This document shows positions 15,818 to 64,000 of a stretch of DNA of 64,000 nt, in pieces. Position 1 is the first letter of the stretch. Every line of letters starts with the position of its first letter. The translations under genes were made by a program, and so were the position numbers. Under the pieces are notes generated by a model that worked only from the letters and a program-made list of their open reading frames with translations, had not been told where the DNA came from and did not search any database. The DNA is taken from NCBI RefSeq assembly GCF_003018235.1, contig NZ_CP027437.1; one strand, 5' to 3'. Source of the DNA: Escherichia coli. GTDB lineage: Bacteria > Pseudomonadota > Gammaproteobacteria > Enterobacterales > Enterobacteriaceae.

Positions 15818-16282
15818 TCAATGGGTTTCTTCTGTCTCTCGGGTGAGGGTTTCCCAGTCGGCAGGAGGATGTCCTCTTTTTAACATTTTGCTGAATACGG
15901 TATAGGCATCTGTTTTTTTACCGTAGGTGCGCAGAGTGTTTTCATCGTTCATCCATCCCAGAATGATGACTTTCTCTTTTTCACTATAACGAAAGAAGAG
16001 ACGATAACGACCAGCACCAAATTTTACCCGTGACCAGTCTTTATTTTTCCCAGAGCCTAACGACTTGCCATGACGGAATGCCGGTGATGATGGATTGACC
16101 GTGATATGCTCCTCAATCACTTTATGGACTACCGCCAATAACTTTGTGGCGGCTTTTCTCTGATAATTTTCAGGATCTTTTCCCTTTAATATCTCGACTT
16201 CGGCAACTAAAGCGTCGTAGGTTTCCTGAAAACAGGGATGAGCATATAGCGCCCAACCATTAACCCTTTGTGGAAAATCCAT
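15818..16282 (-). CDS. yhaV: Type II toxin YhaV (ribosome-dependent mRNA interferase)
   Basis: 154-aa ORF MDFPQRVNGWALYAHPCFQETYDALVAEVE...; overlaps prlF stop by 1 nt. Confidence 0.9.
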   Translation of the reverse strand: MDFPQRVNGWALYAHPCFQETYDALVAEVEILKGKDPENYQRKAATKLLAVVHKVIEEHITVNPSSPAFRHGKSLGSGKNKDWSRVKFGAGRYRLFFRYSEKEKVIILGWMNDENTLRTYGKKTDAYTVFSKMLKRGHPPADWETLTRETEETH

Positions 16283-16617
16283 TATTCGTCGTCGCCAATC
16301 TCATCATCAATGTTGACGTCCAGGCCAGCGACCAGTTTCTTTCCTTGCTGAATGTTGAATGGACGAGTTTTTTGCGGGTTGTTCTGGATATCTGCATCCA
16401 GAAAACGCAAAAATGCATTCATGGTATGATCCTCCTGTTCATCTCCCAGTCGGCACATAAATACTTGCCCACCAGGCAGAATTTCGTAATGAATGCTGTC
16501 CTGGCCTGGCTTCAGTTTTAAGGCCTCACGCACTGGCGCGGGGATAGTTGTTTGTCCGCGTATCGTGACCTTTGATTCAGTGGTCAGTACAGCGTGAGAG
16601 CGAGCATTAGCGGGCAT
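16282..16617 (-). CDS. prlF: Antitoxin PrlF (SohA), AbrB/SpoVT-fold DNA-binding
   Basis: 111-aa ORF MPANARSHAVLTTESKVTIRGQTTIPAPVREAL..., acidic C-terminal tail. Confidence 0.9.
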   Translation of the reverse strand: MPANARSHAVLTTESKVTIRGQTTIPAPVREALKLKPGQDSIHYEILPGGQVFMCRLGDEQEDHTMNAFLRFLDADIQNNPQKTRPFNIQQGKKLVAGLDVNIDDEIGDDE

Positions 16618-54957: not shown

Positions 54958-55944
54958 TTATAGTTTTACGCTATCTGCCGGAAAAATCACCCCAGTCTGG
55001 CGGCGGATCTCAGTCAGCAGTTTGGCGGTGATGCGACTGACCGCCAGCCCTGGATGATCCACCAGATGTTCATCCACCAGTTCAGCAAACAGCTCTGCTT
55101 CGTAGAGCATGGTATTAATATGCTGCGGTTGGGTGAGATCCTGCATCTGGCTGCCACGCGGAACAAAGCAAACTTTCTGGCATTCAGACAGTTTTTCAAT
55201 CACCAGCGATCCTGCTTCGCCCTGAATCTCGCTTGCCAGGACAGAATCGCTCACTTTTGAGTGCTGCAACGTAACGCTGAAATCACCGTAATCCATCACC
55301 ACCACGCCGTGGGCATCCACACCGCTTGCCAGCAAACTGGCGGTTGCCTGCACGCTTTTCGGTTCACCGAATAATGCCACCGCCGACGCCAGGCAGTAAA
55401 AGCCGATATCCATAATCGAACCGTTAGAGAATGCCGGATTAAAGGTGTTGGGATTCTCACCATCCAGGTAACGTTGATACCGCGAGGAATACTGGCAATA
55501 GTTGAAAAAGACTTTACGCAGTTTGCCGACTTTCGGCAGTGCCTGGCGTAACAGATGAAAGTTCGGCAGACTGGCGGTTTTAAATGCCTCAAACAGCACC
55601 ACCTGATTTTCCCGCGCACAGGCAATGGCGGCATCCACTTCCGCCAGATTCGATGCCAGCGGCTTCTCGCAAATCACATGAATTTTGTGGCTAAGGAAAA
55701 GTTGTGTCTGGGAAAAGTGCAGGGCATTCGGGCTAGCAATATACACCGCGTCAATGGCATCGCTTTCTGCCATCGCTTCCAGCGAGGTAAACAGATGCTC
55801 GACAGAAAAATCATTGGCAAAGTGCTGGGCCTGCTCAAGGCTGCGGGAATAAACGGCGGTTAACTTGTATTTACCGCTCTCATGGGCGGCCTCGACGAAC
55901 TGGCGAGTGATCCAGTTCGTACCAATCACAGCGAAACGTATCAT
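54958..55944 (-). CDS. ygjR: Gfo/Idh/MocA-family NAD(P)-dependent oxidoreductase YgjR
   Basis: Start at MIRFAVIGTNWITRQF (328 aa), Rossmann N-terminus. Confidence 0.8.
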   Translation of the reverse strand: MIRFAVIGTNWITRQFVEAAHESGKYKLTAVYSRSLEQAQHFANDFSVEHLFTSLEAMAESDAIDAVYIASPNALHFSQTQLFLSHKIHVICEKPLASNLAEVDAAIACARENQVVLFEAFKTASLPNFHLLRQALPKVGKLRKVFFNYCQYSSRYQRYLDGENPNTFNPAFSNGSIMDIGFYCLASAVALFGEPKSVQATASLLASGVDAHGVVVMDYGDFSVTLQHSKVSDSVLASEIQGEAGSLVIEKLSECQKVCFVPRGSQMQDLTQPQHINTMLYEAELFAELVDEHLVDHPGLAVSRITAKLLTEIRRQTGVIFPADSVKL

Positions 55945-56022
55945 AACGCGTGGATACTCCATAAAGGGATTCTGTCGTCAATGTAGCACGCCTTTTTCAT
56001 CTTCGACGTGCGCAGATACGCA

Positions 56023-56715
56023 TTATTCTTTCGCCGGACAGCCATGCTCACTAAACGGCCCAATCATGACCGATGGCCCGAGATATTTCGGCTGGCGATG
56101 GAGGATTTTTGCGTCAATCACCGCGCTGACGCGAGCGAGTTTCTCCCGCAGTTGAGTATAAAAACCGTGCTTCATATTGAGGTCTGGCGCGTTAAAACCG
56201 ATAGCGTCGATGCCGTACTGTTTTGCCAGCCAGATGGCGCGTTGGTTATGAAATTCTTGCGAAATAATGGTGATATGGTTTTCCCCAAACACCTTTTTGG
56301 CACGCACCACCGAATCAAGCGTTGAGAATCCGGCATAGTCGCAGAAGATCACTTTTGCCGGTACGCCTTTAGCGATTAAAGCCTGCTGCATACCTGATGC
56401 TTCATCGTAATTTTTACGTCCGTTATCGCCACTTACCAGTAGCCATTTCACTTTTCCGGCGTGGTACAACGCTGCTGCGGTATCAATACGTCGGGTAAAG
56501 TAGCGATTACCCGGCCTCGCCCCCAGCAATAAACCCACGTTACGCGCCGGAACGGCGTTGACATCGCTCCAGGTCAGCTGCTTGCTGGCGTTGACCATAA
56601 CGCGATCGGCAATAAAAATGGTCGCTCCTGCTATAAGCAACAATAAACAGCCAATCTTAAGAGTCCGGCGAGAAAAACAAATACGGAGAAGAAGGCGGGC
56701 AAAGGCGCGCAGCAT
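56023..56715 (-). CDS. ygjQ: DUF218 (ElyC/SanA-like) protein YgjQ
   Basis: 230-aa ORF with N-terminal membrane anchor. Confidence 0.8.
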
Positions 56716-56791
56716 GGTCGTTATCCTTAACGAAAGGGGGGAGGTCGATTTTAGGCGCTAAAGGAAGAAAAGATAACGCCTGACATCATTT

Positions 56792-57295
56792 TCAGATTTT
56801 GTCCTGCCCAAGCGACAACTGCGTTAGCCACAGCCGGGTGTCGAACTCAAGCTGGTGGTACTGCGGCTCCATATGGCAGCACAATTGATAGAACGCTTTG
56901 TTATGCTCTTTCTCCTTCAGGTGCGCCAACTCGTGCACCACGATCATGCTCAAAAACGGTTCCGGCGCGTTGCGAAACACGGTAGCGACGCGGATCTCCG
57001 CCTTTGCTTTCAGCTTGCCGCCCTGCACACGCGAAACAGCGGTATGTAACCCGAGCGCGTTTTTCAGCACATGGATCTTGTTGTCATACATCACTTTAGT
57101 GATCGGCGGGGCATTGCGCAGAAACTGATTTTTAAGATCCTGAGTATATTGCCAGAGGGCTTTATCGGTGGCGTAGTCGTGTGTTCCCGGATAGCGTTTT
57201 GCCAGCACATCGCCCAGACGCTGTTCGTTAATCAGCGTTCGCACCTGGGAAAGTAGCTGGTCGGGATAACCCTGAAGATAAGTAAGATTGCTCAT
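56792..57295 (-). CDS. ygjP: Metal-dependent hydrolase YgjP (HExxH, DUF45/WLM-like)
   Basis: Start at [17 protein letters not shown] (167 aa); zinc motif VVHELAHL. Confidence 0.8.
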
Positions 57296-57379
57296 AACCG
57301 CCCACGAAAAAGAGAAAAAGGGTATACTCACGCACCCTTTTCAGGGGCAACGTCGAAATTTTATCATTCAGGAGGGCCG

Positions 57380-58516
57380 ATGAGCCACTTAGACAACGGT
57401 TTCCGTTCACTGACACTACAACGTTTTCCGGCGACGGATGACGTTAACCCACTACAGGCGTGGGAAGCGGCGGATGAATATTTGCTGCAACAGTTGGACG
57501 ACACAGAAATCCGCGGCCCGGTGTTGATCCTGAATGATGCCTTTGGTGCGTTAAGTTGTGTGCTGGCGGAACATAAGCCATACAGCATTGGCGACTCATA
57601 CATCAGCGAACTGGCGACGCGCGAGAATTTACGCCTCAACGGGATTGATGAGTCGAGCGTGAAGTTTCTCGACAGCACCGCCGACTACCCGCAACAGCCG
57701 GGCGTGGTACTGATCAAAGTACCGAAAACACTGGCGTTGCTGGAACAACAACTGCGTGCGCTGCGCAAAGTGGTCACGCCGGATACACGTATTATTGCCG
57801 GTGCCAAAGCCCGTGACATCCACACTTCCACGCTGGAACTGTTCGAAAAAGTGCTCGGCCCGACCACCACCACGCTGGCATGGAAGAAGGCACGCTTAAT
57901 TAACTGTACTTTCAACGAGCCGCCGCTGGCCGATGCGCCGCAGACCGTTAGCTGGAAACTGGAAGGTACTGACTGGACTATCCACAACCATGCGAATGTC
58001 TTCTCCCGCACCGGGCTGGATATTGGCGCGCGCTTCTTTATGCAGCATCTGCCAGAGAATCTCGAAGGTGAGATTGTCGATCTCGGTTGTGGTAATGGCG
58101 TTATTGGTCTGACGCTGCTTGATAAAAACCCGCAGGCGAAAGTGGTGTTTGTCGATGAATCACCGATGGCGGTTGCTTCCAGCCGTTTGAACGTTGAAAC
58201 CAACATGCCCGAGGCATTGGATCGCTGCGAATTTATGATCAACAACGCGCTCTCCGGCGTTGAGCCTTTCCGCTTTAATGCTGTGCTCTGCAATCCGCCG
58301 TTTCATCAGCAACATGCGCTGACCGATAACGTCGCCTGGGAGATGTTCCACCACGCCCGCCGCTGTCTGAAAATCAACGGCGAGCTGTATATCGTTGCCA
58401 ACCGTCACCTGGATTACTTCCATAAACTGAAGAAGATTTTCGGCAACTGCACCACCATCGCCACGAATAATAAATTTGTGGTGCTGAAAGCGGTGAAGCT
58501 GGGGCGTCGTCGGTAA
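57380..58516 (+). CDS. rlmG: 23S rRNA m2G1835 methyltransferase RlmG
   Basis: 378-aa ORF with tandem methyltransferase domains; SAM motif VDLGCGNG. Confidence 0.9.
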
Positions 58517-58529
58517 GATTGGCAGCTAC

Positions 58530-58620
58530 CTGCCAGATAAGGCGTAAACGCCTTATCTGGCATACGTTCAGCACGTTACCCCCAGGTCGGATAAGACGCG
58601 GCAAGCATCGCATCCGGCAC
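58530..58620. repeat. REP/BIME cluster between convergent rlmG and fadH
   Basis: TGCCAGATAAGGCGTAAACGCCTTATCTGGCA and GTCGGATAAGACGCGGCAAGCATCGCATCCGGCAC units fill the 117-bp gap. Confidence 0.5.
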
Positions 58621-58633
58621 TTCAATGCACGAT

Positions 58634-60679
<2,046 letters not shown>

Positions 60680-60780
60680 TTATGTGGTCGGATGAGTTCT
60701 AATTTAGCCGTCGCCAGAGAAAAGGGAAAAGGGGAGTGCGGGGTTTGTGATGGGATTCAAAAAGAATACGCCCGGTGGTA

Positions 60781-60870
<90 letters not shown>

Positions 60871-60877
60871 TTGCAAA

Positions 60878-64000
<3,123 letters not shown>

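Follow-up and report, generated by a model that had tools for sequence, protein, structure and literature searches.

The intergenic site between rlmG and fadH in the Escherichia coli DNA analysed here (a stretch of 64,000 nucleotides, hereafter the window) carries no higBA toxin-antitoxin (TA) genes and holds a single BIME. Alignment with occupied alleles, including one of the K-12 type, shows that occupied and empty alleles differ by exactly one "higBA + BIME" unit. The case is an ordinary presence/absence polymorphism, already on record, in which a chromosomal type II TA module is carried by some strains only. Such a polymorphism had been proposed in the first-pass annotation, and both the allele alignment and a survey of E. 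coli genomes bear it out. Chromosomal type II TA modules are well known as accessory genes. On balance, we lean slightly towards the view that the empty allele arose by loss of the module, through recombination between two direct BIME copies.

The rlmG-fadH spacer in the window

The coordinates of the ORF list confirm that rlmG and fadH are convergent and separated by 117 bp (58517..58633), as described at first pass. The features of the spacer, of its two neighbours and of a second TA locus in the window are as follows.

15818-16282, minus strand: yhaV, 154-aa ORF (Pfam Toxin_YhaV PF11663, 180.2 bits)
16282-16617, minus strand: prlF, 111-aa ORF (NCBIfam PrlF equivalog NF007429, 168.3 bits against a cut-off of 125)
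57380..58516, plus strand: rlmG, 23S rRNA m2G1835 methyltransferase, 378 aa (ORF list; TAA stop at 58514-58516)
58517..58530: 14-nt flank from the rlmG stop codon to REP1, GATTGGCAGCTACC (aligns in empty and occupied alleles)
58531..58562: REP1, rlmG-proximal BIME arm, TGCCAGATAAGGCGT-AA-ACGCCTTATCTGGCA (inverted repeat, fold, allele alignment)
58563..58585: BIME linker, 23 nt, TACGTTCAGCACGTTACCCCCAG (includes the degraded GTAG foot of REP2, CCAG)
58586..58619: REP2, fadH-proximal BIME arm, inverted relative to REP1, GTCGGATAAGACGCGGCAAGCATCGCATCCGGCA (REP motif, fold, junction)
58620..58633: 14-nt flank from REP2 to the fadH stop codon, CTTCAATGCACGAT (alignments)
58634..60652, minus strand: fadH, NADPH-dependent 2,4-dienoyl-CoA reductase, 672 aa (ORF list)

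The identity of rlmG is given by the NCBIfam RlmG equivalog NF011577 (886.9 bits against a cut-off of 468), and that of fadH by collinearity with the RefSeq-annotated fadH in all E. coli genomes examined, with 97.6-99% protein identity. Two inverted REP hairpins and their 23-nt linker make up one BIME covering 89 of the 117 nt, the hairpins alone accounting for 66 nt. The earlier description of the spacer as almost entirely REP sequence was thus right about the hairpins and slightly generous about their extent.

We took as a HigBA module an ORF of the HigB_toxin family (PF09907) followed by an HTH-type HigA ORF, behind operator palindromes of the TTGCCAAT type; the K-12-like HigB and HigA proteins match PF09907 and HTH_3. 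A tblastn search of all 64 kb with K-12-type HigB and HigA found no match, and the BIME with its flanks fills the 117-bp spacer completely. The reported absence of higBA from the site therefore stands. The nearby prlF-yhaV pair, also noted at first pass, is an intact PrlF-YhaV type II TA locus, in which the two full-length ORFs are adjacent with overlapping stop and start codons. A scan of 58300-58850 revealed no promoter-like or intrinsic-terminator-like sites; the spacer hairpins have no T-runs and so are not canonical intrinsic terminators. A small RNA gene in the spacer was considered and rejected: the only Rfam matches were to naRNA4 and fell below threshold (24-31 bits against a gathering score of 59.5). 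We take naRNA4 to be a family derived from REP sequences, and these matches to reflect REP similarity.

The criteria for membership in the E. coli REP/BIME class were those of PMC3333891. The class comprises extragenic imperfect palindromes of 30-40 nt; REP1 (32 nt) and REP2 (34 nt) both form stems. REP1 is a perfect 15+15-nt palindrome in the window (inverted repeat of 15 nt, 100% complementary), whereas its K-12 orthologue has the canonical GC/TT mismatch. On either strand the two hairpins fold better than 200 of 200 shuffled sequences (z = -4.7 and -3.6). They lie in opposite orientation on the two sides of the linker, as expected for an inverted pair, and REP2 contains a REP motif match (58606-58618, minus strand). 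High copy number, judged by motif count within the 64-kb window, is also found: the REP head motif occurs nine times against 0.74 expected, a count reached in 0 of 100 shuffles. The GTAG or CTAC expected at the stem foot is absent, ATAC following REP1 and CCAG preceding REP2. Since the orthologous copies at two other loci (L007 and L013) keep CTAC and GTAG, the REPs of the window are degenerate descendants of bona fide REPs.

REP1 is orthologous to the canonical TGCCGGATGCGGCGTAAACGCCTTATCCGGCCTAC of K-12, with the CTAC foot degraded to ATAC. Relative to K-12, GC in its left arm has become AA, which now pairs with TT of the right arm, and there is an additional compensatory G to A / C to T pair. 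This change looks like a quasi-palindrome (templated) correction. The same perfect palindrome is seen at L001, L005, L006, L096 and L004. Binding and cleavage by TnpA-REP in vitro need both a 2-nt stem mismatch and GTAG (PMC3333891). As REP1 has neither the mismatch nor CTAC and REP2 has no GTAG, the BIME of the window is predicted by these rules to be inactive as a TnpA-REP substrate, and can probably no longer be mobilised.

Exactly 14 nt separate each REP hairpin from the stop codon of the gene that it faces (58514-58531 and 58619-58636), and the fadH-side spacing is kept in K-12 by way of a 23-nt remnant hairpin. REPs generally act as 3'-end structures of transcripts, a role that this spacing fits, and those within 15 nt of a stop codon are said, in work of Liang and Deutscher, to affect translation termination. 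The BIME probably acts only as a 3'-end hairpin structure for both convergent transcripts.

Comparison with occupied alleles

In the annotation of MG1655 (NC_000913.3) the gene order is fadH (b3081), higA (b3082), higB (b3083) and rlmG (b3084), and the published K-12 layout is rlmG-283 bp-higB-higA-44 bp-fadH (PMC5120126, Table 1). The K-12 pair is thus located at exactly the rlmG-fadH site, and the gene numbers b3082/b3083, on which the first-pass comparison hinged, prove to be correct. The window is collinear with a K-12-like allele through rlmG and the whole of the left BIME, and the alignment resumes 14 nt before the fadH stop codon. The 938 bp missing from the window at this same site comprise the promoter, the operator, higB, higA and a 23-nt right hairpin.

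From the rlmG side, occupied alleles run through the left BIME, the promoter, operator and genes of the higB-higA operon, another direct copy of the BIME and the 14-nt fadH flank. The last base of REP2 (58619) is the point after which higBA and the second BIME copy are placed in these alleles. All occupied alleles have the left junction GCATCCGGCA/ATGTCTGCCC in common, with no difference between the K-12-like strain, ST131, the B1-type relic, STEC299 and E. whittamii. The right-hand copy is preserved to different degrees. In E. whittamii a complete REP1-linker-REP2 is present on either side of higBA, and in Escherichia sp. MOD1-EC7003 the right copy is likewise complete. The right copy of STEC299 lacks one arm of REP1, and in K-12, ST131 and the B1-type relic it is reduced to a REP1 head fused to a REP2 tail, forming the 23-nt hairpin tgccggatgcgttgcatccggcg. 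The left and right copies of E. whittamii have species-specific variants in common (GTGAACGCC and ACGATCA), which suggests gene conversion between them.

No short target-site duplication, terminal inverted repeat or transposase gene was found at the occupied alleles, which therefore do not have the makeup of a transposon or IS insertion. The sole repeat at their boundaries is the BIME, 23 to 90 nt long, and the only genes inside are higB and higA; the module is bracketed by direct BIME copies. Separately, in STEC299 (L004:1118-1540) 29 nt of the HigA operator region (TTGCCAATCTGTCAACGGATGTTATCATA) are duplicated in tandem, and higB has an internal deletion.

Allele frequencies in E. coli

The rlmG-fadH pair was found in 5,420 of the 5,426 complete E. 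coli genomes surveyed. Any match to the 939-bp higBA interval is present in 4,377 genomes (81%), and a near-full-length interval (at least 80% covered) in 2,824 (52%). With only about half of complete genomes carrying it near full length, higBA is not a core component of E. coli. About 1,553 genomes (29%) have a partial match, corresponding to a relic in which higB is deleted and higA alone is left, so that higBA decay is ongoing in the species; annotation pipelines still name such an orphan higA as a TA component. Most partial matches are of a 614-bp form (B1-type) that has lost the promoter and the first 79 codons of higB, with higA intact, and in a rarer form higB is cut internally. The interval has no match in 1,049 genomes (19%), and the contiguous empty junction seen in the window is present in at least 838 (15%); an empty state like that of the window is therefore a property of 15-19% of complete E. 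coli genomes, or about one in six. The long right-hand BIME copy of the STEC299 type occurs in 109 genomes (2%), and a DUF1266 gene replaces higB in 2 of 5,426 (<0.1%), namely WL297 and 2013C-4282.

These counts bear on whether the empty junction could be an assembly artefact, produced by a collapse of the two BIME repeats. In short-read assemblies, whatever lies between two direct repeats may in principle be lost when these collapse. Yet the repeats here are under 100 nt, shorter than sequencing reads, and the same contiguous junction recurs in the 838 or more complete genomes just mentioned. Moreover, an identical FadH adjoins rlmG over the same 117-bp gap in the five independent draft-genome contigs listed of the 23 carrying this FadH. 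We consider this explanation to have next to no chance of being correct.

TA content is known to be uneven among E. coli strains and lineages (PMC7167474). The polymorphism at fadH-rlmG is common and already published, and is known in kind. The present additions, namely allele frequencies, the bracketing by BIMEs and the occurrence of higBA at this site in several genera, are tidy but unsurprising.

The site across Escherichia and Enterobacteriaceae

A scan for RlmG with one genome per species (GTDB) yielded 80 loci, 75 of which have fadH converging on rlmG as in the window. None of the 80 is from E. coli proper, E. fergusonii, E. marmotae, E. ruysiae or Salmonella, and the absence of E. fergusonii, E. 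marmotae and E. ruysiae makes outgroup sampling within Escherichia thin. The site is gene-free in 69 of the 75 Enterobacteriaceae species, as a spacer of 3-215 bp in 66 and as a REP/BIME array in three. These arrays (L033:5135-5515, L034:5135-5600 and L063:5135-5590), found in two Citrobacter-like genomes and one Enterobacter, consist of 4-5 tandem units with a period of about 100 bp and contain no gene.

Homologues of higBA occupy the same site in four of the 75 species: E. whittamii, Pseudocitrobacter faecalis, "Citrobacter sp. 18056" and Enterobacteriaceae bacterium RIT691. They are thus present at rlmG-fadH in three genera besides Escherichia. Local palindromic repeats of the CCCTCTCCC...GGGAGAGGG type stand on either side of the module in Pseudocitrobacter and RIT691. 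The higB of "Citrobacter sp. 18056" (L073:5353-5667) is interrupted by an in-frame stop codon (…LLTHR*YDVF…) next to an intact higA; judged from its sequence, this is another instance of the toxin decaying first.

The two remaining loci carry other genes. One of the 75 has a DUF1266 gene together with higA: in MOD1-EC7003 (L009:5333-6130) AT-rich DNA encoding a 265-aa DUF1266 protein (PF06889, 87 bits) replaces the left BIME and higB, and the gene lies directly upstream of an intact higA, giving a third allele of the site. A contig of E. albertii NBRC 107761 (L010) has the same left-flank sequence as this allele and ends before higA. The other locus, again one of 75, contains an unrelated pair: in Enterobacter sp. 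kpr-6 (L061:5297-6681) a YPO3983-family protein (TIGR03034, 306 bits) and a DUF943 membrane protein are encoded in the spacer. This unrelated two-gene insert indicates that the spacer accepts different cargoes.

One might go further and regard the rlmG-fadH BIME as a reusable docking site, where small cassettes come and go in units of "cargo + one BIME" across the genera of Enterobacteriaceae. Turnover would proceed by REP-specific or BIME-BIME recombination, the cargoes would be higBA, the DUF1266-higA hybrid and the YPO3983-family/DUF943 pair, and a module would be "locked in" once its right BIME had decayed to a 23-nt hairpin like that of K-12. If this were so, REP elements would take an active part in the turnover of gene cassettes, beyond being passive repeats between genes. 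We regard this broader proposal as speculative and unlikely.

Origin of the empty allele

By the reading that we favour slightly, recombination between the two direct BIME copies would have removed the module together with one copy, leaving a single clean BIME. The loss could have happened in the source lineage itself, or elsewhere, with the empty allele imported afterwards by homologous replacement across the flanking rlmG and fadH sequences. Loss is favoured by the direct BIME repeats, which offer recombination an obvious substrate, and by the ongoing decay of the module. Empty alleles also occur on at least two BIME haplotypes, each of which is shared with an occupied allele (the window, L001, L005 and L006 with L004; L007 with L003), and from these haplotypes we infer more than one origin of empty alleles.

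Several observations weigh against loss. The structure is symmetrical, so that an insertion accompanied by BIME duplication looks like the reverse of a deletion, and the deep ancestral state may be empty, given the 69 of 75 gene-free species. As a tentative alternative, we hold that the site in the source lineage may never have been occupied. The single BIME would then be ancestral; the module and a BIME would have entered once in an Escherichia ancestor, with the K-12 state derived, and the module would have spread or persisted in most lineages, with empty haplotypes continuing to segregate and to move by recombination. Besides the predominance of gene-free spacers, the site is empty in two divergent Escherichia representatives (L011 and L013), and the BIME of empty alleles is the same as the left copy of occupied ones down to the final base. 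In the case of the window this likeness comes from asking whether its BIME is a left-right chimera, a weak test because STEC299 is the sole comparator with diagnostic left/right differences; given the likeness, any crossover would have to lie at the very tip of the repeat. The flank of empty alleles, CCGGCA CTTCAATGCAC, matches only the rare STEC299-type long form (about 2% of genomes); the common K-12-type flank is CCGGCG CTTCAAATAAC. Slippage within K-12-type alleles is not how the empty alleles came about. A mobile source exists as well, since HigB-family modules are carried by plasmids (Erwinia pJE01, with 71% identity in HigB and 77% in HigA).

Evidence against a site never occupied comes from the two or more shared BIME haplotypes and from how the module has diverged. 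Four Escherichia lineages have the module or higA, namely E. coli, E. whittamii, MOD1-EC7003 and the E. albertii contig, the last counted by its left-flank sequence, with divergence comparable to that of the flanks: a comparison of E. coli with E. whittamii gives 95.0-95.3% identity for the module and 92.3-94.2% for the flanks. Across genera, HigA divergence follows that of the hosts, HigA identity among carriers having the same rank order as RlmG and FadH identity. HigA and RlmG are 83% and 88% identical, respectively, between E. coli and Pseudocitrobacter, 71% and 85% between E. coli and RIT691, 71% and 85% between E. coli and "Citrobacter sp. 18056", and 82% and 91% between RIT691 and "Citrobacter sp. 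18056". Same-site chromosomal copies also have in common an upstream TTCTGGAAGCG block that is missing from plasmid copies. Taken together, the module/flank divergence, the rank order of HigA and host, the upstream block and the spread within Escherichia favour a long residence of the module at the site with repeated loss. Spread of the module by homologous replacement among relatives may account for the same data. As for direct donors, a plasmid origin was rejected, the homologues being up to 71% identical (Erwinia) but without the upstream block of the same-site copies, and so was a phage as immediate source, the best phage HigB match being 41% identical.

A further candidate is TnpA-REP (RAYT, REP-associated tyrosine transposase), which might catalyse loss or gain by cleavage at equivalent iREP/linker sites of the two BIME copies and strand transfer that would yield "higBA + one BIME" as a single-stranded circle, as has been proposed for changes in BIME copy number. 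The enzyme cleaves and recombines BIMEs in vitro at the iREP and linker, for which an excision/integration model has been put forward (PMC3333891). The indel here is exactly one BIME-delimited unit, and tandem BIME arrays stand at the same site in Citrobacter. The window has neither the mismatch nor the GTAG that the enzyme requires (PMC3333891), its REP1 being perfectly palindromic with ATAC at the foot and its REP2 preceded by CCAG; K-12 REP2 has no GTAG either. Movement of kilobase cargo by TnpA-REP was not found in the literature consulted, and nothing found here separates its action from ordinary homologous recombination. We think a part for TnpA-REP quite improbable.

The site lies in strongly mosaic surroundings: identity between the window and ETEC1701 is about 99.8% over 57001-58000, within rlmG, and 93.6% in mid-fadH. 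Over about 55000-62000 (ygjR, ygjQ, ygjP, rlmG and fadH) the window is diverged by 4-6% from the K-12-like strain, against 1-2% elsewhere, and none of the complete E. coli genomes examined matches closely across all of this segment. The proximate event in the source strain may well have been the import of an empty haplotype. Haplotypes of such unusual depth are also compatible with long-lived alleles, as expected had the site never been occupied. For comparison, rlmG is 96% identical between E. coli strains and 94-95% identical between Escherichia species, and the higBA module differs by only 1.6% between K-12 and ST131. The next spacer, between fadH and ygjK (60653-60877 of the window), is polymorphic too: a 1,542-bp "hypothetical protein" CDS is located there in VCSW7, 21AH004 and ETEC1701 (L001:6058+, L005:9058-10599 and L096:41329-42869; frameshifted in ETEC1701). 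It is missing from K-12 and from the window, whose fadH-ygjK spacer has REP motifs at 60783 and 60853.

Significance and relation to known systems

The source strain has neither the HigB mRNA interferase nor the HigA repressor at rlmG-fadH. The empty site of the window leaves current understanding unchanged and carries little weight on its own. The BIME bracket and the recurrence at the same site in several genera nevertheless provide a simple, testable example of clean TA module loss.

The nearest known system is the K-12 higB-higA pair itself, a "reverse-order" type II TA module whose HigB is a ribosome-dependent mRNA interferase. It has the same chromosomal site and the same left BIME as the window, and its 14-nt fadH-side flank is orthologous to that of the window with three bases different. 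The window, in contrast, has lost or never had the whole module, of which no remnant is detectable.

A similar pattern is provided by the textbook case of ccdO157 at folA-apaH, which Mine et al. (2009) reportedly found to be present, decayed or absent across E. coli. There too intact, degraded and empty alleles of a small TA module coexist within one species at a conserved intergenic position, although the TA family and the site are different; we know of no BIME bracket at folA-apaH.

Orphan-higA alleles at fadH-rlmG have been described in CFT073 and NRG857c (PMC7232551), and the B1-type 614-bp and STEC299 forms found here likewise belong to the non-functional states of this same locus. These alleles show that higBA decays in natural populations. 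They keep higA and have lost only higB, through internal deletions, in contrast to the window, where the whole unit is absent cleanly at the BIME boundary.

Finally, the polymorphism resembles the BIME copy-number variation of E. coli described by Ton-Hoang et al. (2012, PMC3333891), in which the number of BIMEs per locus varies between strains. At rlmG-fadH, where one BIME up to a five-copy tandem array is found depending on the species, the varying unit differs in that it includes 0.85 kb of protein-coding cargo.
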